55,683 nt of DNA from IMG/VR virus record IMGVR_UViG_3300023174_000203, positions 1 to 55,683 of that record, one strand, 5' to 3'. The DNA comes from a virus (taxonomy: Duplodnaviria > Caudoviricetes). Shown in pieces: positions 5,548 through 38,259 of the stretch; the first letter of the stretch is position 1, and each line of letters starts with the position of its first letter. The notes beneath the pieces are model-generated. The model saw nothing but the letters and a program-made list of their open reading frames with translations. It ran no database searches and was not told the origin of the DNA. Both the position numbers and the translations under genes were made by a program.

Positions 5548-8394
5548 TTATTTATTAGACTTTTTTTTATCCTCTATTTCTTTTTCTTTTTTCTCGCGCT
5601 CTAGGCGTTCTTTCTTAGCGGCGTTACCCATTCTTTTCATGAAGGATGGTTTATTATAGTAGGGAGTTGCTTCGTCAATCTGCTCTTCTTCTTTTACAGG
5701 CTTCATTTTTTCGTTTTCTGGCTCTTCTTTATACTTCTTAGTATAGACAGTACCAGTTGAAATTTTCTTCTTATCAAATTTGCTCTTTAGAGCGTCTTTC
5801 ATTCTTTTCTTAGCATCATCCACTGTTGGAAATGCTTCGTTAACCTGAGTTTCTTCTTTTGCTAGACGGTCTGCAGCCTTTTCAATACCAGCCATTCTGT
5901 TCTTTAGCTTTACTTTTACTTCTGGTCTAGCATCTTTAACCATTCCTGAAGGTGACTCGCGTCCTACTAATTGCTTATCACGACCATATTCTTTAGATGC
6001 TTTCTTAACATAAGAACCTAATGTAGATTTCTTTAGTTCGTCAATCTGCTCTTCTTCTTCTTCTTTTACAGGCTTCATTTTTGTTTTTGCTGTATGAACA
6101 TTTGTAAGAGGATTCTTTTGGCGCTTACTTGCAGCAATAAAGTTCTTATTGTTCTTTTCAATCTTTCTTCGATAATCGTTCTTATCTTCATTAACTTCAC
6201 TTTGCATATAGTCAGCAACAGTACTAATATAATCAGCAGCCAGAGTAATCTTGCTCTGTACCCATTCAGCCATATTGGTATCATCTTTTAGCATATCATG
6301 TGCCTGCTTAGCGTTAGCCATAATACTACGCAGCTGACTCTTTGCCATGTCGCCTTCATAATCGTATTCTCTAGGATCCTTGGCTTCATTTGCTTTAGCA
6401 ATACCCTTCTCACGCTTCTTAATAAAGTTCTTAGCGATATCTCTGTACTCTTCACCCTTTTTAGTATAAGGTATAGATTGCTTTATTTGATCTTTAGCCT
6501 TAGCAACATATGATGCTTTAGTTGCAGGTGATAGTTCATCTAACTGTTCAATCTCTTCTTTCATTCTTACATCAGCACGCATAGATCCAGCTGTGCGTTT
6601 AGCTAATTTTTTTTGTACAGAAGGAGGATTATTTGAGTATTTGTATTTCTTAATATACTCACTAGCTTTTGCTTTATAATCGCTTACAGTCTTTTGTGAC
6701 ACTTCATCGATCTGAACATCTTCTGATGTAGGTTTTTTATTCATCAAACGTACTGTTGCGTTTGCCATACCTGATACGTCTTTCTGTGAAGGAACACCCG
6801 GCTTATTTGTCTTCTTTTGAAGATAAGATTTAAGTGTAGTCTTTTTCAATTCATAAATTTGATTGATCTCTTCTTTAACTGCAGCATTTTTAAATTTATT
6901 CCAATCTGATTTATCAGTGCTAACAACCTTATGAAGTGGTACTACGTGCTTTGATGCTGTATGAACTTTAGTTCCTGCACTACCGCCAGTTTTATGAGAT
7001 ACTTTGCTTATATGGTGTTTACCTTCGTGCTTATAGATAACCGTGCCGCCGTTAGCGATATCATCTTCGCTATAACCTTCTTTAAGTCCCTTTGCAGCAG
7101 TCTTATCAGTTTTAATGTTTCTAATAACTGCAGTATAATCAGTAGCAAGCTTTTTAGTTGGATTTTTATTCTGTGTCTGACCTTTAACCATATTATAATC
7201 AGTAGTTACAGATTCATTTTTAGACATCTTAGCCATCTTATTCTTGAGCATATTCATCTTTGACTGATGCACTTTAACTGCCATATCATCACCAGATTTA
7301 TTAGCAGCAATTGCTTTTTCGGAATGACGATCTAATGCAGCTTTTAGATTTGCAGCTTTATCTTTACCAAATGCAGCTTCATTCTTCATACTTAGACTAC
7401 GTAGAAAACCATCTTCTTTTGGGATTGGATTTTCTTTTTTACGTCGTTGTGTTTCGTAATCTGTAGTTTTATCTTGTGCTTTTAAAAGTTCCAAATATTT
7501 TTTTTGTCTTTGAACCGCATTTTGTGCATTGGCAACTGCTTGATCCGATGACATTGACGGTAAATTGGGTTGAGGACGATTTACAGATTCGTCTAGTTCA
7601 ACTTCTTCTTTAATTCCTGCGTGCTCAGAGCCATGAACTTTATAGCCCCTCTTCTTATAAAACTTTTCACCAAGTTTTTGAGCAGATTCTTTATTTGGTC
7701 CATGATTAACTATAACATGCTTTAAAGTCTGTTCTTTACGCTTAGTTACCATAGGATGATCTGGCTCAGAAACGGTAACAGCAATACGATGCTTAACTGG
7801 TGCTGGAGCAACAGGAGCTTGTTCTAGTTGAAGATCTTCTTTCATTCCTTTTTTAAAACCTTTGAAGTTCTTACGAGGATTAGTCATGTCCTTCTCATCA
7901 GCTTCTTCTTCTTCTTTCTCTGCCTTCTTAGATTCTTTCTCGTCTTCGTTTTCTTCTTCATCATCTTCTTCGTCTTTTTTAGACTTCTTAGCTTCAATCA
8001 TCTGTTCAGCTTTTTCTTCTTCTTCTTTCTTCATACGAAGTTTCTTGAAGTCTTCAGCATCAAGCTTGCCATTCTTATTAACGTCGATCTTTTTCTGGCC
8101 ACCAACAAGTTTCTCTTCAATCTCTTCGACTTCTTCTTTACGAAGAGCTGTCTTAGTCTTCGACATCATTGATTGATCATTAACAACCACATCTAGAAGA
8201 TCTTGCATAACCTTAAGAAGCATCTCACGCTTAGCTGGATTCTTCATCGATGCTTCTGGATTTTCTAAAGCCTTCATAACAGCCGATGCATTCTTATCAT
8301 GGCCTAGACCTGAACGTACTAGATCTTGTTTTGCTCTAACTGATGCAGGAGTTGCCTCTGCAAGAATCTTTCTGATTTCTTTTTCGACTGACAT
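5548..8394 (-). CDS. 948 aa modular, Lys/Glu-rich putative internal head polyprotein
   Basis: Repeated (I/L/V)xE junctions, EF-hand-like DVNKNGKLDAED, EYDYEGDMAK module, LKKSTLGSYVKKA-like repeats. Confidence 0.6.
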   Translation of the reverse strand: MSVEKEIRKILAEATPASVRAKQDLVRSGLGHDKNASAVMKALENPEASMKNPAKREMLLKVMQDLLDVVVNDQSMMSKTKTALRKEEVEEIEEKLVGGQKKIDVNKNGKLDAEDFKKLRMKKEEEEKAEQMIEAKKSKKDEEDDEEENEDEKESKKAEKEEEEADEKDMTNPRKNFKGFKKGMKEDLQLEQAPVAPAPVKHRIAVTVSEPDHPMVTKRKEQTLKHVIVNHGPNKESAQKLGEKFYKKRGYKVHGSEHAGIKEEVELDESVNRPQPNLPSMSSDQAVANAQNAVQRQKKYLELLKAQDKTTDYETQRRKKENPIPKEDGFLRSLSMKNEAAFGKDKAANLKAALDRHSEKAIAANKSGDDMAVKVHQSKMNMLKNKMAKMSKNESVTTDYNMVKGQTQNKNPTKKLATDYTAVIRNIKTDKTAAKGLKEGYSEDDIANGGTVIYKHEGKHHISKVSHKTGGSAGTKVHTASKHVVPLHKVVSTDKSDWNKFKNAAVKEEINQIYELKKTTLKSYLQKKTNKPGVPSQKDVSGMANATVRLMNKKPTSEDVQIDEVSQKTVSDYKAKASEYIKKYKYSNNPPSVQKKLAKRTAGSMRADVRMKEEIEQLDELSPATKASYVAKAKDQIKQSIPYTKKGEEYRDIAKNFIKKREKGIAKANEAKDPREYDYEGDMAKSQLRSIMANAKQAHDMLKDDTNMAEWVQSKITLAADYISTVADYMQSEVNEDKNDYRRKIEKNNKNFIAASKRQKNPLTNVHTAKTKMKPVKEEEEEQIDELKKSTLGSYVKKASKEYGRDKQLVGRESPSGMVKDARPEVKVKLKNRMAGIEKAADRLAKEETQVNEAFPTVDDAKKRMKDALKSKFDKKKISTGTVYTKKYKEEPENEKMKPVKEEEQIDEATPYYNKPSFMKRMGNAAKKERLEREKKEKEIEDKKKSNK
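5671..6082. repeat. Near-identical ~40-46 bp direct repeat (5671-5710 and 6037-6082)
   Basis: ttcgtcaatctgctcttcttc(ttcttc)ttttacaggcttcattttt, encoding KMKPVKEEE(EE)QIDE at module junctions. Confidence 0.9.
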
Positions 8395-8793: not shown

Positions 8794-11640
8794 TTAGTCA
8801 TTATCAATAATCTTCAATTTTCGCTGTGCTTTAATATTACGCGAGATCAAATAATTAGATAGGTTATCAACATCCTTATCATTACCTGGACCTGGTTCTT
8901 GATTCAGGTTTTTAGGTAATGTTTGGAAACGTGGGTCATCAGCAAGATGCGCTGATGGTGGACGTTCAGTATTTCCACTTTGAGCATCTACGATCTTTCT
9001 GTATATATCAACAACATAACCATGCTCTGAATTGAGGTTCATATCACCAGCAAACTTCATTACTTTCATTGCTGCTAGTTTTGCTGCTGCAACATCTTCT
9101 GGAGTTGCAAACTTAGATACTTGAACTTTCTTCCAGATTCCAAATAGGTTATCTTGTTCTTGTGCAGCCATCGATGCCATGTTTGGATCAGTTCCTTTTG
9201 GAAGATTCATGTAAAGCTTTTGTGCTTCAGGACTTGTTTCAAAATGCTTTGAACGATATGAACCAACAAAGATCTGATCTTCAGGATCATTCTCCATTTG
9301 CTTACTCGAGCGAACTGTAGTGCTTGTCATTTTAGGTGCAGCTTTCATCTCTTTAAATGACATAATCTTTCTAACTTCAGGATGATGTTCAAATCCACCT
9401 AAACTCTCATTTGTTGTTTTTGCTCTAGCGTTTTGAAGCTGTCTTTTAAACCCTTGTGCTGTAGTACTGTCACCACGCTGAAGAGCACCTGCTATCTTTT
9501 TATGTATCGCAGCAGCAACGTGTTTACCCGCTTTAGCCATGGCTGCAGCAGCTCTTAGATGTGAAGCTGCATCTTCATTGATCTCTACTTCTTCTTTTCT
9601 AAGTGCATCGATCTCTTTCTGCTTTTGAGCAATTCTCTTCTTATACTCTTCAGGATCAGGTAGACCAGATTTCTTACGAAGTTCTTGATGACGACGATAC
9701 GCTTTTTCTGCAGCAGTTTCTTTAGGCATCTTAAAAGCTTCTTGAGCGCTCTTTAATGCATCTTTAGTTGGTGCACCTTTTGAACCTGGCTTACGCATAC
9801 GCTCACCTGAACCATTCTTAATACGTTCACGCTTGGCATGAATATTGGCCCAAAGACCAGCTTCATTAAGACCTTCTTTTTTCACCTTTGCCCATAGATC
9901 TGCATCAGCAGTTGTTCTTGTCTTACCACCAGATAAGAATGAATTTACTCGTGCAAATGCCCATTGTTGTGGTGTTGTTCCAGGACGGTGACTCGATTTA
10001 TATGCACCCATTCCACGCTTAAATACTTGCTTTAGAATACCAAGAGACACACCTGATTTTTCTGCTTTTTTCTTTAGACCATCAACAGCTTCTTCACTGA
10101 TCTCGGTCATCTCGATACGATCCATTACATTTTCAATGATCGTCAATAACTCATCGGTGTCATCTTTCTCTTCACCGATCATCTTCTTGAAGTTAGTATA
10201 GTTAGCACTTGCATTTTTAATGAATGCTAGTTTATCAGCGGGCTTCTTAAGCCCGAAATAATGATCGAGCGCTTTACGAGCTTGATCTGGTTTAATCATT
10301 ACTGCAGGACCTTGATCAAACGTAACATCCTTTTTACCATGCATTGAGATGGATTTTTGAAGTTGAATAATCAGATTCTGATCTGCTTCACGACCATTAT
10401 CTGGACCGTAATCCTCTTCACCATCTTCTTTAGCTTTTACTTTTGCTGCAGCTGCACGTTTAGCAAGCGTCTCAGGTTTAGCTGGACGACCGCGGCGTTT
10501 TACTTGCTGTGACATCTCTTTAAATGAAACCATTTCCATAATATCGTTTTCCTCTTTCACAGGCTTAATAGGTTGTGCTTTCATAGCTTGACCTAAATTA
10601 AATGATCTCAGTCTTTGAACTTCTTTCTTACGAACAGTAGGTAATAAACGTGATGCGATTCGCTTAATCAATGCTCCCTTTTTATCAATAGTCCTATCAA
10701 CTGCAATTTTATCTGATGGCGATAACTCATGATACTTAACACCTCTTTGACCTGCAAATCTCTTACGAGCAACATCTCTTGCCATTCTTTGCGCTCTAGC
10801 TTTTAACTTAGGAGTACCTGCTAATCTACGTTGTGCAAGTTGTTTGGCACGTAAAATCTTTGTCTTATACTTGCGCATAAGGATCTTACGCTTAATTCTT
10901 TGCTGAAGATTTAATACTGCTTCATTCAACAGACCTTCAGCTTCTAATTCGTTTTCCATCTCTTCACGAATATGCATCTCAACTTTTAATACGTTGAATA
11001 TCTCTGTAGCTACTGATTTAAGCTTAGATGGAAGACCTGACTTAAATGCCTTAATATCGTTCTCTCGTACTGCTTGTCTCATCTTAGACGCTGACATACC
11101 TGCTACTCCTTCTGCATCGGGATCACGCTCACCAGCGGATTCAACAACGATGCTATCAAAATTATATTCTTTTCCGTTATACTTGTTTAATAGTGAACTA
11201 AATTCATTCACACGATCTGAACCTACTACAACTGTAATATTTTTATATGTGTTCTCTAATTCTTTTAATACCTCAATAATAGTCTTTGCCTTTGAAACAT
11301 GCATAAGATCGCCAAATGCTTCGCGAGCATATTTCATCTTGTCTTTGTATGACAATGGATTCTTTTTACTATCTTGGGAGTGTGAGAGATATACTAGTGG
11401 TTTTGCTCTTTTACTTGCTGCAATCTTTTTGACTGCTTCCACTAGCTTTTGATGTCCTACAGTAGGAGGATTAAACCTACCGAAAGTTAGCACCACGGCG
11501 TTACCTGCTTGTTCGGCCACCTCGGATGGCACCTTTGGGTTTATTTCTATCTTATCAAGTTGCTTCTTACTAGTCGAAAAACCAGCTGAGGAGGCTTTTG
11601 GGGGAGTCTTTGACTTGTTTATTTCAATCTTCTTTTCCAT
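8794..11640 (-). CDS. 948 aa multidomain protein: HxGH-class nucleotidyl(cytidylyl)transferase plus C-terminal basic modules
   Basis: TFGRFNPPTVGH, VVGSDRV, SAGERDPD, MSASKMR; later GMGAYKSSHRPGTTPQQWAFARVNSF and GLWANIHAKR modules. Confidence 0.8.
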   Translation of the reverse strand: MEKKIEINKSKTPPKASSAGFSTSKKQLDKIEINPKVPSEVAEQAGNAVVLTFGRFNPPTVGHQKLVEAVKKIAASKRAKPLVYLSHSQDSKKNPLSYKDKMKYAREAFGDLMHVSKAKTIIEVLKELENTYKNITVVVGSDRVNEFSSLLNKYNGKEYNFDSIVVESAGERDPDAEGVAGMSASKMRQAVRENDIKAFKSGLPSKLKSVATEIFNVLKVEMHIREEMENELEAEGLLNEAVLNLQQRIKRKILMRKYKTKILRAKQLAQRRLAGTPKLKARAQRMARDVARKRFAGQRGVKYHELSPSDKIAVDRTIDKKGALIKRIASRLLPTVRKKEVQRLRSFNLGQAMKAQPIKPVKEENDIMEMVSFKEMSQQVKRRGRPAKPETLAKRAAAAKVKAKEDGEEDYGPDNGREADQNLIIQLQKSISMHGKKDVTFDQGPAVMIKPDQARKALDHYFGLKKPADKLAFIKNASANYTNFKKMIGEEKDDTDELLTIIENVMDRIEMTEISEEAVDGLKKKAEKSGVSLGILKQVFKRGMGAYKSSHRPGTTPQQWAFARVNSFLSGGKTRTTADADLWAKVKKEGLNEAGLWANIHAKRERIKNGSGERMRKPGSKGAPTKDALKSAQEAFKMPKETAAEKAYRRHQELRKKSGLPDPEEYKKRIAQKQKEIDALRKEEVEINEDAASHLRAAAAMAKAGKHVAAAIHKKIAGALQRGDSTTAQGFKRQLQNARAKTTNESLGGFEHHPEVRKIMSFKEMKAAPKMTSTTVRSSKQMENDPEDQIFVGSYRSKHFETSPEAQKLYMNLPKGTDPNMASMAAQEQDNLFGIWKKVQVSKFATPEDVAAAKLAAMKVMKFAGDMNLNSEHGYVVDIYRKIVDAQSGNTERPPSAHLADDPRFQTLPKNLNQEPGPGNDKDVDNLSNYLISRNIKAQRKLKIIDND

Positions 11641-24613: not shown

Positions 24614-25087
24614 TTACTCATCAGATTTTTCTTTGATAGAAATTTTCTTTGCTTTCTTAGCTTCTGGAATTAGTCTTTCTAACCAGATTTTCAATAGACC
24701 ATTAATATATTCTGCGTTCTTAATCTCTACAGAATCTGCAATAGTGAATGAACGAGTGAAAGCGCGATCGGAGATACCTTTCCACAGATAGTTGACATTG
24801 TCACTTTCTTCTGTTTCCGATCCAAGTATTGAACTGCCCTTTACTGTAAGAATGCCTTCATTGATCTCAACGTCTAGTTCTTGTTTAGAAAAACCAGCAA
24901 CGGCAAGTTCAATGACGTATCTGTTTTCATCAACTTTTTTGATGTTGTATGGAGGATAGTTCGGAATGTTTTTGGTTAGGTCATTATGAAGCTTAGTTAG
25001 TCTGTTGAGTTGTTCATCAAAACCAACAAAATGTTTATCAAAGTCCTTAAAACCGGGGCCAAACATTGCTAGATGATTCACGGTCAT
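24614..25087 (-). CDS. Small heat-shock protein (Hsp20/IbpA-like)
   Basis: YPPYNI, IELAVAGF, KGISDRAFTRSF, NGLLKI; start 25087 follows AGGAG. Confidence 0.95.
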   Translation of the reverse strand: MTVNHLAMFGPGFKDFDKHFVGFDEQLNRLTKLHNDLTKNIPNYPPYNIKKVDENRYVIELAVAGFSKQELDVEINEGILTVKGSSILGSETEESDNVNYLWKGISDRAFTRSFTIADSVEIKNAEYINGLLKIWLERLIPEAKKAKKISIKEKSDE

Positions 25088-25154
25088 GCTTTTTTCTCCT
25101 ATTAAGCGAGTAATTAAAATGTAGATCCCTAAGGCATCTACAGGTTTATTTATA
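25088..25154 (-). promoter_or_regulatory. Late promoter (25147-25154) and structured leader with ROSE-like hairpin
   Basis: TATAAATA; hairpin TGTAGAT...ATCTACA; CTCGCT-TAAT-AGGAG SD-sequestering hairpin. Confidence 0.65.
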
Positions 25155-25155
25155 T

Positions 25156-25231
25156 TGGAGCGGATGATCAGGTTCGAACTGACGACATTCTGCTTGGAAG
25201 GCAGACGCTCTACCAACTGAGCTACATCCGC
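25156..25231 (-). tRNA. tRNA-Gly (TCC)
   Basis: 76 nt cloverleaf GCGGATG...CATCCGC-T-CCA; anticodon arm TCTGC-CTTCCAA-GCAGA. Confidence 0.97.
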
Positions 25232-29510: not shown

Positions 29511-30416
29511 TCATTTGGGTTCTGCAAACACATATAGATTACCACCTTGATATGTATGCCACGGGACACAATACATGGTGATATTTGTTTTCGTTAATTC
29601 AGGGAATGTGTTGATAAACCAATTTAGATTATCAATACTACCATTAAATTCACATTGAAATAAAATTAGCCAATCGCAAGCACCAACTTTCTTGATGATT
29701 CTTTCACGATACTCAATCTGAGTTTCACTAAATGAATGTGTTCCTATTAGAAGAACTTTCTTTCCAGTAAAATCAGGAAGTTGATCGATATCACTTGCTG
29801 TTTTAATATCAGCAAGATCTTCATTGTAGTACTTAACGATCTTAGTCATAGGATCAAAGTCTACATCCCAATACTCACCTTTGAATCCATGTAGATGAAT
29901 GAGTCTTGCTAACTCACCCATACCACCGCCAATTTCAATGATCACATCATAATCACTGATCTTTTTACCAGTTTCTTTTTCATACTTAACTATATTATGA
30001 AGTTTGATTGGCTGAAGATAGTTAGTAGTTACTGAATTATCTTTATCACCAACTTTAATAGAAAAGTTATAGGTAGTTCTTTCATTGAAACCATTCCTAT
30101 ATCCTCTATCAGTTTCTTCTAGCATCTTAATATATGTAAGTTTACTTTCATCTGAATTAGTTGAAAGCATTTCCCATGTATCTCTTAGATAAGCAGTTGA
30201 TAAACGATGCATTTCCTCTGATGCTTGTACAAAGATAGGAACACGATAGATGATTGCTTCATCTTTAAATCCATACAACCGTTTCTCATCAGCAAATACC
30301 TGCTCAAAAAGAGCAGGTACCTTTTCCCAATATTGAGGATCATCTTGAGCAGGATATTGTGCAAGAATTGGATCAATGATCTCCAAATCTTGATTTGTGT
30401 TATATACAAAATCCAT
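29511..30416 (-). CDS. SAM-dependent methyltransferase (putative sugar O-methyltransferase)
   Basis: IIEIGGGMGELAR motif I, DVD, HSFSE. Confidence 0.65.
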   Translation of the reverse strand: MDFVYNTNQDLEIIDPILAQYPAQDDPQYWEKVPALFEQVFADEKRLYGFKDEAIIYRVPIFVQASEEMHRLSTAYLRDTWEMLSTNSDESKLTYIKMLEETDRGYRNGFNERTTYNFSIKVGDKDNSVTTNYLQPIKLHNIVKYEKETGKKISDYDVIIEIGGGMGELARLIHLHGFKGEYWDVDFDPMTKIVKYYNEDLADIKTASDIDQLPDFTGKKVLLIGTHSFSETQIEYRERIIKKVGACDWLILFQCEFNGSIDNLNWFINTFPELTKTNITMYCVPWHTYQGGNLYVFAEPK

Positions 30417-30417
30417 A

Positions 30418-31368
30418 TTATTTCTTCTTTATCTTTTCAATGTCTGCAGTTGCAGATGCACCAATAGAAGCAAGATCAGCAAGCGATCCACCAAATACAT
30501 AACTACCAACGTGCTGCAGTTTCATCCAAGGATTCAACCATACTTTTAGACCAGCGTTTTGTGCGTAGTAACAGAACATATAATCTTCTGATAGATAACG
30601 CTTAGAAGATGTTTTTTCTGCTTCAAGCATTGTCTGTGCACGCTTTACTAATGCTTCAGGTTTTTCACCATTAGCAAGATCTTCCATCAAACGATGCACA
30701 TCATCAAAAGTATAACCACGATCGATAACACAATCAAAGTAAGCATGAATTTCACGTGAACCATCAAATGCTTCTGTACGTACATGATCAGGTTTATACG
30801 AAAGAGAAGGATATGCTTTTTCTATAGTTTCAAACGTAGAACGACGGATCATCATGAATCCAGTTCCACCTTCACGCACTTCAACTGGTTGATTGATAGG
30901 GATTTCGTTCTGACCACTCTTAGGATTAAATACATAATCACCAACGTAGCGCTCTAAAACATTAGCATCATTATCAGCAACACCCTTATCTACTGCTTGC
31001 TTGATCTTTTCCCATGAGATACACTTCTTAGGATATGGTCCACACATAACATCATATTCAGTTTCATCTCCCATCAAAGCAAGCATCGCAACTACGTCTT
31101 GAGCAGAGAATCCAATATCACTATCAATGAACATCATGTGAGTTGCATTTGAACGCAAGAACTCATCAGCACAATAGTTACGTGCACGAGTAATCAACGA
31201 TTCATTGAATAAGAAATAGAATTGAAGTTGAATACCATAGTTAGTACATAGCGCAGAAAGATCTGCGATTGAACGAGTGAACATACCTGCACATTGTCCA
31301 CCATACATAGGTGCTGATACAAACAATTTACGTTTGCGCAGCTCATCAGTTGAGATTTTAATCTCCAT
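30418..31368 (-). CDS. GT-A fold glycosyltransferase-like protein
   Basis: PMYGG, ESLITRARN, FIDSD (DxD), GTGFMMI, LSEDY, LQHVG. Confidence 0.8.
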   Translation of the reverse strand: MEIKISTDELRKRKLFVSAPMYGGQCAGMFTRSIADLSALCTNYGIQLQFYFLFNESLITRARNYCADEFLRSNATHMMFIDSDIGFSAQDVVAMLALMGDETEYDVMCGPYPKKCISWEKIKQAVDKGVADNDANVLERYVGDYVFNPKSGQNEIPINQPVEVREGGTGFMMIRRSTFETIEKAYPSLSYKPDHVRTEAFDGSREIHAYFDCVIDRGYTFDDVHRLMEDLANGEKPEALVKRAQTMLEAEKTSSKRYLSEDYMFCYYAQNAGLKVWLNPWMKLQHVGSYVFGGSLADLASIGASATADIEKIKKK

Positions 31369-31649
31369 TATTTACTCTCCTTTTTATTTTCACTTTGATC
31401 GTGAACATGTAATTGCAAAATTGCGTAATGAATTATCTTCATCAGGTCTTTACGCGCTTCACCTGATTTTTTTCCATACCTACCTGAATATTTTTGAATG
31501 CAGCCGATGTTGAATCCTGTGCCATGACCTGTTGCGATGATTAAATCCATTGGTTGAACTTCATCGCCGTAGTGTGCACCATAGCAGGCATTGACGTAGT
31601 CGGTTATTTCTTTTATATACTTGTCTTCATTAAACCGATACTTGCTCAT
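31368..31649 (-). CDS. DUF3310-like protein
   Basis: HY...GFNIGCIQKYSGRYGKK...DLMKIIHY. Confidence 0.75.
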   Translation of the reverse strand: MSKYRFNEDKYIKEITDYVNACYGAHYGDEVQPMDLIIATGHGTGFNIGCIQKYSGRYGKKSGEARKDLMKIIHYAILQLHVHDQSENKKESK

Positions 31650-32664
31650 GATCTATAACTTTCTTCAAATAATTATGTGCTACACTTAAAGCAGAAGAAA
31701 CTGCTTGGTGCATATCAATGTAAACATACATTCCACATCGCCCGATAAATGTCATCTTAGGATGTTTAATCGCGGCATATAGTTTATATATCTCCCTGTT
31801 CGTGCCCGATAGATCTTTTACAGGATAATATCTTTCCATATTATTTGTACGATAGTCACAAGGTTCTTCATACGTGAGAGTTGTCATTTCAGGATTATGC
31901 CCATGATTAGGAATATTCTTCCATTCTGTCATTCGAGTATAAGGGCCATGATGCGTAAAATTTACTGTTGTCGTAGGAAGAATTCTTGGAGCAGGAATAT
32001 CGACATGATGGAACTTGATTGAACGGTAAGGTAATTCTCCATGACAGTAGTCATGATAGACATCAATTGGCATCGAATTAAAAATGTGGTCATAATCTTT
32101 CTCCATTGATTTATCAAAAGATGTTCCTAATGATACAGTGATACCTTCCCAATCAAGCATATTAGAGATAAGAGCAGTATACCCATCTCTTGGTATCGCT
32201 TGATATTCATCATCAGGAAAATAGTATTCATTAAAGTCATTTCTAATTGGTACACGATTTATAATTGATGGATCTAATTCTTCAATATCCATTCCCCACA
32301 TCTTTTTAGTGTATGGGCGAATAAAGATATCAACGATATTATCTTCACCAACAATATCTTTTGTAGCACGATTAACTGGCAATGTAACATAATCACCATT
32401 GCTTAATAGAGCTTTTACTTTATGCTTATATGGAATCCACTCAGTGAATCGTCCTAGATAATCATAAACCTTTTTATTGTTTGTATGAAATAGATGAGGG
32501 CCATACGCATGCATTCTAATTTTATGGTCATTTACAAAATCATATGCATTACCTGCAATGTGATAACGCTTATCAATGATAGTTACATTATGACCAGCTT
32601 CAGCAAGTTCTCTAGCAATTACAGCACCAGAGAATCCTGCTCCAACTACTAAGATTTTAGACAT
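31630..32664 (-). CDS. glf: UDP-galactopyranose mutase
   Basis: GAGFSG, HIAGNAYD, YGPHLFHT, YTKKMWG, LPYRS, ERYYP, GRCGMYVYIDM. Confidence 0.93.
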   Translation of the reverse strand: MSKILVVGAGFSGAVIARELAEAGHNVTIIDKRYHIAGNAYDFVNDHKIRMHAYGPHLFHTNNKKVYDYLGRFTEWIPYKHKVKALLSNGDYVTLPVNRATKDIVGEDNIVDIFIRPYTKKMWGMDIEELDPSIINRVPIRNDFNEYYFPDDEYQAIPRDGYTALISNMLDWEGITVSLGTSFDKSMEKDYDHIFNSMPIDVYHDYCHGELPYRSIKFHHVDIPAPRILPTTTVNFTHHGPYTRMTEWKNIPNHGHNPEMTTLTYEEPCDYRTNNMERYYPVKDLSGTNREIYKLYAAIKHPKMTFIGRCGMYVYIDMHQAVSSALSVAHNYLKKVIDHEQVSV

Positions 32665-33674
32665 AGATTAAGCTCCGCCTTTTGTGTTTCTTTATTGAGA
32701 GGGTGTATTCTATATAGCGCTTCTCTCTGTGCTGCTGCCAAATCTTCGAGTTCTTTATCACACATATCAACAAGATCTTTTGCTTTTATATCTGCAAGCG
32801 TTTCATCTTCATAGTAAATAAACATCTCATCTGGATCACCAATAAGAATAGATCCCGCATCTGCAACTTGAAGAGGTCTTGCTCTCCACCAACCAGATCC
32901 TGCATGAAAATATCCAGGCATTAAGATACCCCAATGTTCTGCATAGATATTTACCATCACGTCTTCAGTTACACGATCTTGACCATCTTTTCGTGAACCA
33001 TATTTCATCAAAGGCCAATCATTATCATTAATACCTTGTGCTTTAAGCCACTTCTTTGTTTTATCTTGAATTAATCCTGCAAAATTAAATATACGTTGTT
33101 TAGGTTCAACAACAAGATTATTTGGTTTACGATTGAGATGATAAGGATTTGGGTTATACGTAAATATTTTATCGCGTGGATAATCTAATAGAAGAGTAGG
33201 ATCACCACCACGAAATGCAGAGATTAATAGATTATTAGTTTTAGATTGAATAAGATCCAATGCTTCAACAAAATCTTTTTCCCATTCAGTTACATTTTCT
33301 GGGATATTGGTATGACTTTCAAGAACGTATTTTCGAAATAGTTTTTCGGGGTCTCTAAGCGCGAGCAATCCTGAGTAGATACTATCAGTTTGCCAGTCAT
33401 CAAATGCAAGAGTACAGTCTCTTCTTCTAGCAATCGTATAGAGCGCGTTATATACATAAGCAGCGAAACCTGAAGGATTGTGAATATACACAATAACTTT
33501 GTCGTATTTGTCAAGATTTTCTCCAATATCTACAACTCGCTGCTCTACTTCATGTCCCATATCACGGAGACAACGAATTAAACTATAATGTGATGGAACA
33601 ACTTTAAGCTGTTGACTTGCATAGAAGTCTTCAGTGCACTGCAGCTTATTCATTCCTGTGATTAGTATTTTCAT
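32649..33674 (-). CDS. GT-B DNA glycosyltransferase, distant T4 beta-glucosyltransferase homolog
   Basis: Colinear matches to recalled T4 BGT segments: MKILI, KVVPS, RDMGHEV, DKYDKVIV, FDDWQ, ARPLQVADAGSILIGD, AAQREAL; similar length. Confidence 0.65.
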   Translation of the reverse strand: MKILITGMNKLQCTEDFYASQQLKVVPSHYSLIRCLRDMGHEVEQRVVDIGENLDKYDKVIVYIHNPSGFAAYVYNALYTIARRRDCTLAFDDWQTDSIYSGLLALRDPEKLFRKYVLESHTNIPENVTEWEKDFVEALDLIQSKTNNLLISAFRGGDPTLLLDYPRDKIFTYNPNPYHLNRKPNNLVVEPKQRIFNFAGLIQDKTKKWLKAQGINDNDWPLMKYGSRKDGQDRVTEDVMVNIYAEHWGILMPGYFHAGSGWWRARPLQVADAGSILIGDPDEMFIYYEDETLADIKAKDLVDMCDKELEDLAAAQREALYRIHPLNKETQKAELNLCLKS

Positions 33675-34546
33675 TTTAACTCCATCTCATATGCTGATCT
33701 ACACATATCAGCCAACGATCTTTCAACTGTTAGATACTCAGAAGTTCCATCGATTTCAAGAATATCAGGATCTCCTTCACGACGTGGACCAAATTCTTCA
33801 AGCCAACTTTTGCCTGTAACATCTTTCATTATATCAAGAACCTCTAAATTTGTAAACCCTTTATTTGAACCAAGGCATTCATATTCAGCATTCTTAGGAT
33901 TAGAAAAAGCAGCATTCACTATCGCTTTAGCAAGATCAACAACATGAATATAATCCCTAATACAAGTACCATCTCGTGTAGGATAGTCACCTCCATTTAT
34001 GATTACCTTTTCTCTTTTACCTGCAGCAGCTTCTGCAGCAACTCTAATTAAATGTGTTGAGGGACCAAACTGACGATGTTCACCATTAGAACCAGCAACA
34101 TTGAAGAATCTAAAGATTGTATAACCAGGTGCTAACTGTCGAATAACATCTTCAGCTGCTACTTTAGATTTTGCATATGGAGAAACAGGATCAAATGCTC
34201 CTGCTGTTGATGCGAATATAAAATGTTTACACTTTACATTCTTAAGAATATTAATTGTTCCATTTAAATTAGTATCGTAGTATTCATATGGCTTTTCCAT
34301 ACTCTCACCAACTCGTACTAATCCAGCAAGATGAATTACTACGTCATACATAAGACCATGTTGAATATCACGCACATCTTTTTGTATAAGCGTATGACAA
34401 TATGGATTAATATAATTTCTATATGCTGTGTCTATATCAAGAGCTGTAATATAAACTTCACGTGCATTTACTTGCTTATATAATTCTTTCAATACATGAG
34501 CACCAATATAACCCGTAGCTCCTGTTACTAATATGCTTGTAGCCAT
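33671..34546 (-). CDS. galE: UDP-glucose 4-epimerase
   Basis: TGATGYIG, HLAG, FAST, YAKSK, RFFNVAG, DGTCIRDYIHVVDLA, RREGD. Confidence 0.9.
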   Translation of the reverse strand: MATSILVTGATGYIGAHVLKELYKQVNAREVYITALDIDTAYRNYINPYCHTLIQKDVRDIQHGLMYDVVIHLAGLVRVGESMEKPYEYYDTNLNGTINILKNVKCKHFIFASTAGAFDPVSPYAKSKVAAEDVIRQLAPGYTIFRFFNVAGSNGEHRQFGPSTHLIRVAAEAAAGKREKVIINGGDYPTRDGTCIRDYIHVVDLAKAIVNAAFSNPKNAEYECLGSNKGFTNLEVLDIMKDVTGKSWLEEFGPRREGDPDILEIDGTSEYLTVERSLADMCRSAYEMELK

Positions 34547-34890
34547 TCTTTACAATCCTTTAATATCTCATTTACTTTATCATGATCGTTCATCATTCTA
34601 TTTCTAGGTGATGGATGTGGCAAGGTGTAATGCTCGATGCCTAGTGTATTTAGCGTCTTCGAAACATGACCACCTAATGCAATCACACGATAATAGTCTA
34701 TAATTTGAACTAATAGACTATCATAATCTATTTCTTTAAAGTCCCATTCAGGATCATCAGAGAGATTTGTAAACGAGACGACGCCTGTGCCGAGATAATC
34801 AATCCACGAACACAGGCGATTCCAAGCTCCGTTCTTATGTACTTTGTTTGCTAATCGGGATGGGTTCAAACCCACTATTATAGTCTGCAC
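34528..34890 (-). CDS. Minimal uracil-DNA glycosylase-like protein
   Basis: IIVGLNPS, FTN, IALG, LPHPSPRN. Confidence 0.7.
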   Translation of the reverse strand: MQTIIVGLNPSRLANKVHKNGAWNRLCSWIDYLGTGVVSFTNLSDDPEWDFKEIDYDSLLVQIIDYYRVIALGGHVSKTLNTLGIEHYTLPHPSPRNRMMNDHDKVNEILKDCKEWLQAY

Positions 34891-35323
34891 AATATTCAGA
34901 ATATTTTACGCCTGCTTCATCAAACATATCTCGTGTGTCTTCCCACGATTTTAGCCAACGAAGATCAACGTATTGGTCAGTAAAAATATGAACTTCTTTA
35001 ATGCCTACTTGAATAATACCTTTAGCACATTCACTGCATATAGGAAGTCCATACACGTATAATGCTGCACCATCAAGAGATACACCAGAGAATGTCGCGT
35101 TATAGATAACGTTCATCTCAGCATGCACTACATATTTGTATTTAGTAGGCCTATCATCTAATCTTTCAATTGAATCATCAATGCCTCGAGGAAAACCATT
35201 ATAACCTTGAGAAAGAATTTGGCCTTTGCTTCCTACTGCAACAGCACCAATTTTTCTAGATGGATCTTTACTCCAATCAGAAACTTCTTTTGCAAGATTT
35301 AAATATCTTTTATTCCATCTCAT
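34835..35323 (-). CDS. dCMP deaminase
   Basis: WSKDP, GYNGFPRG, HAEMN, PICSEC. Confidence 0.93.
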   Translation of the reverse strand: MRWNKRYLNLAKEVSDWSKDPSRKIGAVAVGSKGQILSQGYNGFPRGIDDSIERLDDRPTKYKYVVHAEMNVIYNATFSGVSLDGAALYVYGLPICSECAKGIIQVGIKEVHIFTDQYVDLRWLKSWEDTRDMFDEAGVKYSEYCADYNSGFEPIPISKQST

Positions 35324-35967
35324 TTTACTAATCCAAAATGTCTTTCATATACATGAAGACTTCCTACACTCCAGATAATATCTCCAAGTTCAACACCAAG
35401 TTCATCGCATAATGCAAGAGCAACATATTCTTGCCATGCATAATCATTCTTATAACCGAAGACAACATCATTACTTCGCATTTGAACAACTACTTGTAGC
35501 TTATTATCACGAATCATGTATTGAACAGCATTTGTGCAGATGAAGTCACTCATACCATCAATATTATAATCATTCCAAATCATTGGACGAGTATAGATCA
35601 TGCATGCACGGCGAGAGAATGGATTACGACGAAGTTCTTCTAGAACATTTTGATATTGATTCCAGTTCTCATCATGCCAAATAAGATAACCATAGTTAGA
35701 ATTAATCCAACCTTGAGTAGATGCAACTTGTTTCCATATATCAGGAGGACCACCGGGAATATCACCAACATTCAATGACATTGATTTATACCAATCAAGT
35801 TCACGTTGAATATACTCTTGATTAGGAGTACCAAAGATTGCAGGTTTATCAGCCAAGAAAGTTGCACCGATAATCTCGATCATGTTGACGCCAGTTTTAT
35901 CCTGGACAAATTTCTTCTGTTCAAGATTGCGTACAAATATATCTCGAATGTTATCAATACTCATCAT
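35320..35967 (-). CDS. 42: dCMP hydroxymethylase (T4 gp42)
   Basis: DKTGV..IEIIGA, EYIQREL.WYKS, INSNYG, IYTRP, GMSDFICTN, MRSNDVVFG.KNDYAWQ, GSLHVY; Asp at the specificity position. Confidence 0.93.
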   Translation of the reverse strand: MMSIDNIRDIFVRNLEQKKFVQDKTGVNMIEIIGATFLADKPAIFGTPNQEYIQRELDWYKSMSLNVGDIPGGPPDIWKQVASTQGWINSNYGYLIWHDENWNQYQNVLEELRRNPFSRRACMIYTRPMIWNDYNIDGMSDFICTNAVQYMIRDNKLQVVVQMRSNDVVFGYKNDYAWQEYVALALCDELGVELGDIIWSVGSLHVYERHFGLVK

Positions 35968-36305
35968 GGTATCATCTTCCTATTCAAGAAGTCACGAGTA
36001 GTTGATTGACCTTCGATACCACCACGCATGTAAGCAACAAAGAACGATGCATAGTTAATTAGATCGACTGCTGAATCTTCCATTGATTCAAAGTTTGGAA
36101 CATAATTAGGATCATTTTCCATCGCTTCCATAACAGATTGAATGCGAAGAATTTTACCATTCATTACATCTAGAATTGATGCGCAACCACGTGGATAGTA
36201 GTCTGCTTGTTTGATACGACTATTAGGATTCTGATAATCGTTTGATTTGCGGGTTTGAATTTCAGCAGCTTGTTGTAGGACTTTTAAAGATTCTTTCATG
36301 TACAC
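35964..36305 (-). CDS. Nucleotide-modification-associated domain protein (DUF1599/Nmad1-like)
   Basis: KSNDY, KILRI, ESMEDSAVDLINYA. Confidence 0.7.
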   Translation of the reverse strand: MYMKESLKVLQQAAEIQTRKSNDYQNPNSRIKQADYYPRGCASILDVMNGKILRIQSVMEAMENDPNYVPNFESMEDSAVDLINYASFFVAYMRGGIEGQSTTRDFLNRKMIP

Positions 36306-36348: not shown

Positions 36349-36867
36349 CTATATATTTCTCACGTTATAATAATATCCATCCCCATAATTAGAAGGAGAT
36401 AACGCATTCATAACACGTTCAACCTTTTGAACTTCACATAATTTAAATTGAACAACATCACCTGCTCTCAATGGAGATTCAGGTGGTTTAGGATAATATT
36501 TGTAGAATGCAAAATGCGTTACATTTCCACTTCGTAGATTTTCCATGTAATAGATAGTCTTATCCTCTGGAACATTGAAGTATTTTGAAGTGATTATCTT
36601 ACAATCTACCTTTGTATCTTCAACAATAAAATCATGGTAGATATTTACTGGTTTTTCTACTAATTTTTTCTTTAGTAGTTGATATTCAATTGCAAGACAA
36701 TCAGCGTGCATTATGCGACGCCAATCTTCACGACCATTTGCACGAAACTTATTTTTCATCTTATCGCGAAAAGCGATAAATTCTTCAGTCACTTCAAATG
36801 TTTCAACTTCCTCATGAATATTAGAGAGGTAGTTGTACAGAGTTGAGGAGTCCGTGATTGTGTTCAT
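36349..36867 (-). CDS. PD-(D/E)XK nuclease, possibly DenB (endonuclease IV)-like
   Basis: AIE...YHDF...VDCK core and C-terminal SNYGDGYY; likely start 36867. Confidence 0.5.
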   Translation of the reverse strand: MNTITDSSTLYNYLSNIHEEVETFEVTEEFIAFRDKMKNKFRANGREDWRRIMHADCLAIEYQLLKKKLVEKPVNIYHDFIVEDTKVDCKIITSKYFNVPEDKTIYYMENLRSGNVTHFAFYKYYPKPPESPLRAGDVVQFKLCEVQKVERVMNALSPSNYGDGYYYNVRNI

Positions 36868-37240
36868 GTGAGGGTGCTTTCCATCCTTCAGGTTTAATAA
36901 GGTCAGGCAGACCAAGTGGATTAGGACGTGATTCTTTTATACCAATTTGTTTACTCATATTGGCTTTATGTACTTCGTCCCATGCCTTTTGTGCATCTAC
37001 ATTAAAAAGATCTAGAGTGCCAATTGCAACAACACAAAGATCGATCAATGCATCTACAACATCTTCTGCAGATTCTGCAGTTCTAAGTTCAGTCATTTCT
37101 TCTTCAAGAAATTTTACACGAAACTCTAGAAACTTTTTTAGTTTTTCAGAATCAAACTCTTGAATTTTTGGTTTTACACCATAGTGTTCATGCATATTGG
37201 CAATATCGCCAACCCAATCTGTTAACATGCTGTTCTCCAT
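36821..37240 (-). CDS. MazG-like all-alpha NTP pyrophosphohydrolase (putative dCTPase/dUTPase)
   Basis: FLEEEMTEL, DVVDALIDL, EVHKANMSK, KPEGW; TAATG-coupled start 37240. Confidence 0.85.
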   Translation of the reverse strand: MENSMLTDWVGDIANMHEHYGVKPKIQEFDSEKLKKFLEFRVKFLEEEMTELRTAESAEDVVDALIDLCVVAIGTLDLFNVDAQKAWDEVHKANMSKQIGIKESRPNPLGLPDLIKPEGWKAPSHEHNHGLLNSVQLPL

Positions 37241-37392
37241 TACTTGTCTTTTACGCCACATTGCTCTTCCTTTTTCTCAATACATATTGCTTGAACGGGT
37301 TTTGGATATTCAACATAGTTATCAATCACTTTTCCTGCTCCCCACCACCCAAAGTATGTAAAGAATCCTGCAACTATCCATTCAACAATCAT
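37240..37392 (-). CDS. Small membrane peptide
   Basis: MIVEWIVAGFFTYFGWWGA...; ATGA-coupled. Confidence 0.65.
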   Translation of the reverse strand: MIVEWIVAGFFTYFGWWGAGKVIDNYVEYPKPVQAICIEKKEEQCGVKDK

Positions 37393-37511
37393 AGTAATAT
37401 TCCAATCAAAATTAATAGTCCAAGCCATTCCATAAACGTAAGCCTTTGATAAAACGCTAAGACGCTTGGAGCATACCTGCACATCCAAGCCTCAATGAAG
37501 TAAGTATCCAT
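37389..37511 (-). CDS. 40 aa membrane peptide (not in ORF track)
   Basis: MDTYFIEAW...WLGLLILIGILL; abuts both neighbours. Confidence 0.55.
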   Translation of the reverse strand: MDTYFIEAWMCRYAPSVLAFYQRLTFMEWLGLLILIGILL

Positions 37512-37638: not shown

Positions 37639-37701
37639 ATTATACACTAACTGCCAGAAATGTACACAAGTTTGTTAGAAAAGTGTATCTGGAATGATAC
37701 A
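37639..37701 (-). promoter_or_regulatory. Promoter TGTACA-N16-TATAAT with upstream palindrome TGTATC-N6-GATACA
   Basis: Shares architecture with 14266-14329. Confidence 0.75.
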
Positions 37702-37722: not shown

Positions 37723-38259
37723 TTACACATAAGAAATTTTCTTTTCTGACAATAAGTCATTTTTCTTAGCCCGGATGAACTGTTGCTTCTTTTTTAATGC
37801 TTTATCAAGATGATAACGATGTACTTTAGTTGTAAAATTTATACCTTCCATATGATCTAGCTCATGGAGGAAAACTCTAGCAGTAAGACCATCAAATTTC
37901 TCAGTAACCGTCTCACCATTTGGCATTGTGTAACGCACTTTGATTATTCTAGGACGTTTTATCTTAAGATATACATATTGATATGTTAAACATCCTTCTT
38001 CTAGAGCAATTTCTGTTTCGTATGATGCATCAATTATCCTAGGATTAAAACATGCCATTACAGGGTTGTTTGCGATCACAAATACGCGATAAGGAAGTCC
38101 ACATTGGTTAGCAGAAAGACCAAGACCGTTGTTTTTTAACATAGTCTCTGTTAGATTTTTTGCTAACTCAATAGGATCTATTGGAGGATCATCAAAATCA
38201 AAATGTTCTAGTTTAGTAGAAAGTAAAGGGTGATCAGGTTTAACTAATTCATATATCAT
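37723..38259 (-). CDS. def: Peptide deformylase
   Basis: GLGLSANQ, EGCL, HELDH motifs. Confidence 0.95.
   Translation of the reverse strand: MIYELVKPDHPLLSTKLEHFDFDDPPIDPIELAKNLTETMLKNNGLGLSANQCGLPYRVFVIANNPVMACFNPRIIDASYETEIALEEGCLTYQYVYLKIKRPRIIKVRYTMPNGETVTEKFDGLTARVFLHELDHMEGINFTTKVHRYHLDKALKKKQQFIRAKKNDLLSEKKISYV

Follow-up and report, generated by a model that had tools for sequence, protein, structure and literature searches.

A nuclease-fold protein, probably a distant relative of T4 endonuclease IV, in a gp42-linked gene cassette of uncultivated T4-like phages

Phage T4 replaces the cytosine of its DNA by making hydroxymethylcytosine (hmC), destroying deoxycytidine triphosphate (dCTP), and cutting cytosine-containing DNA. 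To our knowledge, the parts that carry out this scheme have been known only from T-even phages. Here we describe a locus in IMG/VR virus record IMGVR_UViG_3300023174_000203 (Duplodnaviria; Caudoviricetes), in which a 172-residue protein of no named family (ORF172), predicted to be a nuclease, is encoded between a MazG-type pyrophosphatase and an orthologue of gp42, the deoxycytidine monophosphate (dCMP) hydroxymethylase of T4. The window that we analysed is the whole of this record, 55,683 bases at an estimated 31% completeness. All of its long open reading frames (ORFs) lie on the minus strand, and its T4-type core genes include those for terminase, portal, major head protein, sheath, tube, gp55, gp47/gp46, and gp45, as well as gp44/62, gp43, UvsX, gp41, and primase. 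We propose, with moderate confidence, that the 172-residue protein is a metal-dependent PD-(D/E)xK DNA endonuclease, distantly homologous to T4 endonuclease IV (DenB) and its counterpart in position, in a dCMP-centred cassette whose pyrophosphatase would keep plain cytosine out of the phage DNA.

The nearest precedent for such a gene set is MetaGPA (eLife 2021), in which PF00303, PF01503, and dCMP deaminase were reported to co-occur on modified-cytosine contigs (PMC8670742). The same trio of a thymidylate-synthase-family protein, a PRA-PH protein, and dCMP deaminase is present in the cassette of the window; the difference is that MetaGPA dealt in Pfam domains only, so that a Pfam-less nuclease could not appear in it, and a count of the word "endonuclease" in its main text gives 0 (PMC8670742). 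Our literature searches returned no description of the ORF172 nuclease family or of the cassette's nuclease. The logic of the cassette is that of T4 and is not categorically new. What is new is an unnamed, only distantly DenB-like nuclease family, its tight linkage to gp42, its fusion to a DUF1599-like protein, the exchangeable slot in which it stands, and the apparent replacement of both gp56 and DenB in a complete relative genome.

The gp42-linked cassette and its nuclease-fold protein

The genes of the cassette and the features directly around them are the following (window coordinates).

34835..35323, minus strand: dCMP deaminase (PF00383 E 1.5e-18; phrog_174 E 1.2e-40)
35320..35967, minus strand: gp42 orthologue, dCMP hydroxymethylase (60% identity to T4 gp42)
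35964..36299, minus strand: DUF1599-like protein, 111 residues from the ATG at 36299 (113 residues from the listed GTG start at 36305)
36349..36867, minus strand: 172-residue predicted PD-(D/E)xK nuclease of an unnamed, distantly DenB-like family (predicted catalytic residues E61, D79, D88-x-K90)
36821..36867, minus strand: 47 nucleotides in which the MazG-type gene, at its end, overlaps the beginning of the nuclease gene
36821..37261, minus strand: MazG/PRA-PH-type all-alpha NTP pyrophosphohydrolase, 146 residues (139 residues from the ATG at 37240)
37240..37488, minus strand: 82-residue ORF without a known family, which precedes the MazG-type gene on its upstream side and is kept in two related loci only (L002 and L003)
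37639..37666, minus strand: sigma-70-like promoter match TGTACA-16-TATAAT, a consensus match only, upstream of the cassette gene group

The nuclease ORF is listed as 36349-36915 on the minus strand, and the ATG at 36867 yields the 172 residues. A preliminary description of this locus had singled out the ORF by the motifs AIEY, YHDF, VDCK, and SNYGDGYY. All four are present, the first three within CLAIEYQ, NIYHDFIV, and KVDCKII and the last as S159-N-Y-G-D-G-Y-Y-Y, with SNYGDGYY lying 7 residues short of the C-terminal end (...SPSNYGDGYYYNVRNI). The end motif of DenB given there for comparison (KSNYNGWY) is also right, the DenB sequence in the T4 record ending in ...RKSNYNGWYLSI. The overlapping MazG-like gene was found as described, at 36821-37261 or from 37240, with its 47-nucleotide overlap. 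The pair had been placed directly upstream of the gp42 operon, which is correct as to position, although the DUF1599-like gene of 111-113 residues, whose ATG start at 36299 is taken from its relatives, intervenes before gp42 itself. The 47-nucleotide overlap recurs in L002 and L003 and is lacking in L013 and L015, so that the adjacency of the MazG-type and nuclease genes is conserved while the overlap is not. Farther upstream, the stop of the 82-residue ORF overlaps the MazG-type ATG at 37240 as TAATG. Promoter sites were not enriched (11 found versus 20.1 expected from shuffles), and a terminator scan was likewise without enrichment.

The cassette recurs well beyond the window. A search of IMG/VR with patterns from the nuclease family alone returned 19 distinct contigs (L004 and L007 being one contig, and L015 and L019 another). 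The MazG-type gene lies directly upstream of the nuclease gene in 17 of them, and gp42 lies downstream of it in 15; since three more contigs end too early, this amounts to 15 of the 16 that can be judged. The order MazG-type, nuclease, DUF1599-like, gp42 is thus recurrent across very divergent phages, and in most related loci the dCMP deaminase gene comes after gp42. The gene upstream of the cassette varies (gp43, peptide deformylase, or gp46), and the cassette therefore moves as a unit. Within it the nuclease diverges fastest, having fallen to 25-29% identity in comparisons in which the MazG-type, DUF1599-like, and gp42 proteins are still at 51-63%. One IMG/VR contig of 4,418 bases (L016) has a 151-residue member of the family between PolA (family A) and a FEN-type exonuclease, with a primase-helicase as well.

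Sequence searches give the 172-residue protein no name. It has no Pfam, PHROG, or NCBIfam family at useful thresholds (the best Pfam match, DUF7450 at E 0.0077, is below the cut-off) and no tblastn match at E ≤ 0.01 among 50,697 phage records, and a profile search of PDB sequences gave only chance-level rows, the best being ribosomal protein S1 (E 0.028). Relatives were found in metagenome protein sets, with 9 close homologues at E ≤ 0.01 among 19 candidates, and among 1.84 billion sequences searched there were 99 cluster representatives at E ≤ 1e-3, 48 at E ≤ 1e-10, and 7 at E ≤ 1e-30. These homologues and representatives indicate that the ORF is no chance frame. Besides the window protein, the family alignment of 92 sequences takes in 7 close homologues (of 9) and 84 other representatives (of 98). 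Left out were P0002 and P0004, which are near-duplicates or truncated; the giant repetitive proteins P0038 and P0081; three longer or fused proteins (P0077, P0093, and P0103); and 9 fragments, short or split. The two giants (2,624 and 7,139 residues, respectively) were dropped as relatives because they look repetitive: P0038 matches the query in 19 separate stretches and P0081 in 9, probably through repeats or biased composition, and Pfam gives only scattered weak matches on P0038.

The 92 sequences share E61, D79, and K90 without exception, even at about 23% identity, and D56, D88, G136, S159, and F30 are kept in at least 90%; some members have ExK instead of DxK, as DenB does. An AlphaFold2 model built from the family alignment (pLDDT [predicted local distance difference test] 95.6; predicted template modeling score 0.90) has the PD-(D/E)xK core, in which an alpha-beta-beta-beta-alpha-beta arrangement presents acidic residues and a lysine on a helix and on strands 2 and 3. 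In this model E61 lies on the long helix 48-66, D79 just before strand 80-82, and D88 and K90 on strand 85-91. Foldseek matches of the model in the PDB are weak (best E 0.013) but consist of Hjc, NaeI, HincII, EcoRV, SwaI, and DpnI. A VIA search of 48,161 PDB chains, independent of Foldseek, ranked NhoI (Z 6.3), NaeI (6.3), DpnI (6.0), SwaI (6.0), EcoRV (5.4), and NlaIV (5.1) highest, scores of about 6 lying in a common range that is not decisive alone. Each of these six VIA matches, like each of the leading Foldseek ones, is a PD-(D/E)xK enzyme. The nearest named Atlas clusters, PDDEXK_14, PDDEXK_16, and DpnI, are leads only. Because the top structural matches are uniform in identity and the core residues invariant, the assignment of the model to the PD-(D/E)xK nuclease fold is firm, and the E...D...(D)xK core first read from the sequence holds; the nuclease activity itself is predicted.

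Relation to T4 endonuclease IV

Five agreeing lines, namely aligned residues, a profile-profile alignment, models, a bridging family, and a C-terminal serine, indicate that the 172-residue protein is probably a distant relative of DenB. The two proteins (172 and 185 residues) are both encoded by gp42-bearing T4-like phages, share a collinear E...D...(D/E)xK pattern, and end in S-x-Y-x-G-aromatic-aromatic, the motif that holds DenB Ser176. They differ in setting, as T4 denB adjoins rIIB while the 172-residue gene stands near gp42.

The DenB family is invariant at E62, D89, E102, K104, S176, and G180 (16 homologues). Profile-profile alignment of the ORF172 and DenB families pairs E61 with E62, D79 with D89, DxK with ExK, and S159 with S176 over 118 columns, at a probability of 17%; for the C-terminal 33 columns the probability is 43.8%. 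The alignment score of 26.5 exceeds those of 150 out of 150 column shuffles of the DenB alignment (mean 12.8, standard deviation 2.4, maximum 22.4) and that of the reversed alignment (11.6), and unrelated families from the same genomic slot, used as a control, reach at most 1.1% probability. The paired residues matter in T4: the S176N variant of DenB was reported to keep 17.5% of its activity while losing polarised cleavage of dC tracts and toxicity, and W88R, adjoining D89, to be a dead enzyme (PMC2175332). Production of T4 DenB has been reported to kill E. coli (PMC1635256).

In our own model of DenB (pLDDT 87.5), helices and strands follow one another just as in the 172-residue model. The best match of the DenB model in BFVD is E5EZ26 (template modeling [TM] score 0.86, 49% identity), which is a DenB-family entry, and the 172-residue model aligns with this entry at TM 0.54/0.52 (root mean square deviation 4.8, 174 columns, E 0.011, rank 35). 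The best BFVD match of the 172-residue model is A0A2H4N7Y1 (TM 0.81), and the best non-self matches common to both models are A0A6J5L8Z3 (TM 0.65 to each), A0A6J7WXK2, A0A060AI46, and A0A516LIN9.

Overall, the relation is visible only through the bridging family U1 (about 200 residues), which occupies the same genomic slot in 9 related loci. The best PHROG match of U1 is the DenB profile phrog_1360 (E 2.2e-5); over 139 columns U1 aligns with the ORF172 family (86.5% probability), and over the catalytic core of 66 columns it aligns with DenB (41%).

The pyrophosphatase, the variable slot, and competing readings

The MazG-type protein matches PF01503 (PRA-PH) at E 1.4e-9 (38.7 bits against a cut-off of 21.3), also in a six-frame search, and phrog_671 at E 1.1e-22. 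All-alpha NTP pyrophosphohydrolases carry acidic metal-binding motifs of the ExxE...ExxD type on two helices, and the sequence here reads FLEEEMTELR and AEDVVDALIDL, possible counterparts of these motifs. For T4 gp56, which we take to be a member of the same superfamily, Pfam gives dUTPase_2 (E 2e-5) and a weak PRA-PH match (E 0.019), the latter fitting a shared superfamily. Both proteins thus apparently belong to the all-alpha group, but gp56 is of family phrog_173, whereas the window protein is of PF01503/phrog_671, and phrog_173 is not among its PHROG matches. Its closest solved relative is DR2231 of Deinococcus radiodurans (PDB 2yeu, 5i0m, and others; E 1.3e-6, residues 59-129), likewise a MazG-like NTP pyrophosphohydrolase. 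The alignment includes the KPEGW end; DR2231 differs in being bacterial and in aligning only with the C-terminal half of the window protein.

Support for the substitution of gp56 comes from a relative genome, G001, which is complete, terminally repeated, and 198,633 bp long and which carries the cassette. No match to phrog_173 (gp56), phrog_1360 (DenB), PF00692 (dUTPase), or PF03819 (MazG) was found in G001, and exactly one match to PRA-PH (PF01503), which lies inside the cassette. The same profile searches detect both DenB and gp56 in T4 and in Serratia phage Muldoon, where the sole PRA-PH match is gp56 itself, below the cut-off. On the evidence of sequence, this complementary pattern supports a replacement of gp56 by the MazG-type protein, as far as one complete genome can.

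The gp42 neighbor named in the preliminary description is a true orthologue. Over 220 aligned columns, 60% of its residues agree with T4 dCMP hydroxymethylase (E 7e-95); it matches 1,435 phage records, of which T-even gene 42 is the best, and it keeps the residues aligned with T4 Cys148 and Asp179. The idea that this thymidylate-synthase-like gene encodes a dUMP hydroxymethylase or a true thymidylate synthase was dropped on account of the 60% identity and the Asp179-aligned aspartate.

The DUF1599-like protein reaches Pfam DUF1599 ("nucleotide modification associated domain 1") only at E 0.018, below the cut-off; it matches phrog_18404 and phrog_1485 and forms a highly conserved family of its own. 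phrog_18404 appears to cover fusions of MazG-type and DUF1599-like proteins, since the two separate proteins of the window match its two halves. Another natural fusion is P0077 (275 residues), which joins an ORF172-family domain to a DUF1599-like protein 52% identical to that of the window over 107 residues (E 1e-43). In the cultured phage Muldoon (NC_049464, 24178-25395; L024), a 154-residue hypothetical protein encoded directly upstream of the gp42 homologue matches the window's DUF1599-like gene at the DNA level; the gp42 homologue is annotated there as thymidylate synthase, and glucosyltransferase genes are annotated as well. This pairing extends the DUF1599-gp42 arrangement beyond uncultivated phages.

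A search with the DUF1599-like protein found at least 586 loci, of which the best 80 (L025-L104) were examined, a set that is not random and includes near-identical contigs. All but one of the 80 have an ORF, 60 residues long or longer, that ends just upstream of the DUF1599-like gene, and over these 79 loci the slot is occupied as follows.

13 loci: the MazG-type gene itself, no nuclease
9 loci: U1, the DenB-like bridging family (phrog_1360 E 2.2e-5)
9 loci: SNase (PF00565 E 6.4e-13)
6 loci: U5, a divergent ORF172 family (hhalign 99.2%)
2 loci: ORF172 proper
1 locus: partial ORF172-like protein (hhalign 65.6%)
5 loci: GIY-YIG/ParB-like protein of homing-endonuclease type (phrog_314 E 1.8e-10)
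1 locus: DEDD exonuclease
8 loci: weak PD-(D/E)xK candidates U4 and U12 (20-27% probability)
7 loci: family U3, of no known function
4 loci: primase-like protein
14 loci: small or unassigned proteins

A supported nuclease thus fills the slot in 33 of the 79 loci, and the slot upstream of DUF1599-gp42 is a variable place where phages swap nucleases. It is also conceivable, if doubtful, that the nuclease forms one unit with the DUF1599-like protein, to which it is fused in P0077 and next to which it is encoded in nearly every cassette. The DUF1599-like protein would then bind a cytosine or hmC nucleotide, or gp42, and gate or target the nuclease, and the slot would be a socket for exchangeable effectors (ORF172 family, DenB-like U1, SNase), possibly driven by host sensors of DenB-type activity such as retrons. 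If so, DNA destruction would start only after the hmC supply line runs.

In the reading we prefer, the pyrophosphatase would hydrolyse dCTP, and probably dUTP too, to the monophosphate and so keep plain cytosine out of phage DNA. The resulting dCMP would feed gp42 and dCMP deaminase, as it does with T4 gp56. The nuclease would cut DNA with unmodified cytosine, be it host DNA or mis-made phage DNA, and the hmC-containing phage genome would be spared. For the cassette proteins we thus infer the nuclease activity, its dC specificity, the resistance of hmC to it, and the substrate range of the pyrophosphatase.

Several results weigh against this reading. The preliminary description had called the nuclease DenB-like, and what stands of this is the distant kinship set out above (aligned residues, the serine motif, a TM score of about 0.53, and U1). 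Judged by profile, the protein falls outside the DenB family: phrog_1360 does not match it even at E ≤ 10, while matching T4 DenB at 4.1e-97; BLASTP against T4 DenB gives E 1.1; and the 9 close homologues carry no precomputed Pfam domain, while PF26887 is found on all 22 listed DenB homologues. In the structural comparison, 34 BFVD entries outrank the DenB-family entry E5EZ26 in Foldseek, and the common-range Z-scores given above do not settle the fold by themselves. The DenB signature D82-P83...W88-D89-V-L (DPYTYAWDV) is not kept, the 172-residue protein having P73-V-N-I-Y-H-D79-F, and the glycine-rich loop G118-P133 of DenB has no equivalent in it. As regards the cassette, L016 (1 of the 19 contigs) is a T7-like replication module in which, as far as the contig extends, neither a MazG-type gene nor gp42 is present, and the 13 nuclease-less loci, together with the other slot genes, indicate that the cassette works without the ORF172 family. 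The single compact module first proposed is therefore right in its conserved MazG-nuclease-DUF1599-gp42 order, but the nuclease is an optional, replaceable part of it. The suggestion that the MazG-like protein stands in for gp56 agrees with its being the sole pyrophosphatase of G001, which lacks gp56, but the nearest solved relative, DR2231, is reportedly described in a paper's title as exclusively active on dUTP. Further, the MazG-type protein has no BLASTP similarity to T4 gp56, its family is far more widespread (4,628 homologues at E ≤ 1e-5) than that of the nuclease, and the complementary distribution comes from G001 as the single complete genome. DenB and gp56 (phrog_173, E ≤ 1) were not found in the window, which at 31% of a genome proves little.

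These points leave room for other readings of either protein. The MazG-type protein might be a dUTPase or house-cleaning enzyme that excludes uracil and makes dUMP, with dCTP excluded by other means, such as a selective polymerase or the DUF1599-like protein. The title attached to DR2231 ("exclusive activity on dUTP") would fit this, as would the breadth of the MazG-type family, much wider than the gp42-linked nucleases, and G001 is without a trimeric dUTPase, so that some dUTPase is needed anyway. We nevertheless consider it rather unlikely: the protein is the only recognisable deoxynucleoside triphosphate pyrophosphatase in this complete gp42-bearing genome, its gene lies one or two genes from gp42 in 17 of 19 contigs, the DR2231 match is limited to the C-terminal half, and T4 gp56, one all-alpha enzyme, does both jobs according to the T4 record annotation. 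Also unlikely, and a little more so, is a nuclease that degrades host DNA for salvage with no cytosine specificity, supplying deoxynucleoside monophosphates including dCMP for gp42, the phage DNA being protected by timing, compartment, or another factor. Such a role is suggested by the non-specific types that the slot holds elsewhere (SNase in 9 of 79 loci, the DEDD exonuclease in 1) and by the L016 member beside its FEN-type exonuclease in a T7-like module without gp42 in view. Yet the near-invariant serine pairs with DenB Ser176, which governs dC-tract recognition in T4, and gp42 follows just downstream in 15 of 16 judgeable contigs.

The variability of the slot, with a homing-endonuclease-type (GIY-YIG/ParB-like) gene in 5 of 79 loci, and the low identity of the nuclease (25-29% versus 51-63% for the MazG-type, DUF1599-like, and gp42 proteins) could also mark a selfish or competitive element in a permissive place, acting either as a free-standing homing endonuclease or as a weapon turned on co-infecting phages. 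This is hard to reconcile with a position and orientation constant down to 25% identity, which point to vertical descent with the cassette, with the fusion to a DUF1599-like domain in P0077, and with a model that has no extra DNA-binding domain of the homing-enzyme kind; we regard it as very improbable. The P0077 fusion could in turn be taken to mean that the 172-residue protein is no nuclease at all and serves the DUF1599-like protein as a partner, structural or regulatory, when nucleotides are modified. To this we give next to no credence, as the invariance of E61, D79, and K90 in 92 sequences to about 23% identity is the pattern of an active site and not of a scaffold.

Other genes of the window and the meaning of the cassette

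A run of sugar-nucleotide genes lies downstream of the dCMP deaminase gene (29511-34546, minus strand). It is listed here with other genes of the window.

33671-34546, minus strand: GalE-like UDP-glucose 4-epimerase (TIGR01179 E 2.3e-59)
32649-33674, minus strand: 341-residue phrog_14998 protein of no known function
31630-32664, minus strand: UDP-galactopyranose mutase (TIGR00031 E 1.1e-84)
within 29511-34546, minus strand: 316-residue phrog_1574 protein
29511-30416, minus strand: sugar O-methyltransferase-like protein
34528-34890, minus strand: 120-residue ORF that overlaps the dCMP deaminase gene at its end (weakly similar to the UDG superfamily, PF03167 at E 0.0046, which is below the cut-off)
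37723-38259, minus strand: peptide deformylase (PF01327 E 1.9e-30)
24614-25216, minus strand: Hsp20-type protein (phrog_432)
5548-8394, minus strand: 948-residue ORF with no match at E ≤ 1e-5
8794-11640, minus strand: 948-residue ORF adjoining the previous one (cytidyltransferase PHROGs, phrog_3041 E 1.5e-79)

The sugar-nucleotide run suggests that hmC may bear an unusual sugar, possibly galactofuranose; no glycosyltransferase was identified. The 120-residue UDG-like ORF is 88% conserved in L002 and L003 and is present in a few of the loci found with the DUF1599-like protein. Peptide deformylase and Hsp20-type genes are typical of aquatic T4-like phages.

The cassette bears on several aspects of phage biology. 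Its genes offer a testable marker set for hmC-type genomes in metagenomes, and the slot upstream of the DUF1599-like gene is a defined genomic place for nuclease exchange among phages. Through the shared serine motif, the ORF172 family would provide a second, divergent family for work on the reading of cytosine by DenB-type enzymes. DenB of T4 and T2 has been reported as the trigger of retron Eco2, and T2 DenB has been modelled with AlphaFold3 together with metal ions and poly-C DNA (PMC12916289, 2026); divergent DenB-like enzymes may therefore matter for host sensing of infection. In sum, the logic by which T4 replaces its cytosine seems to have been rebuilt, beside gp42, from another pyrophosphatase family and a very distant relative of DenB in abundant uncultivated T4-like phages.

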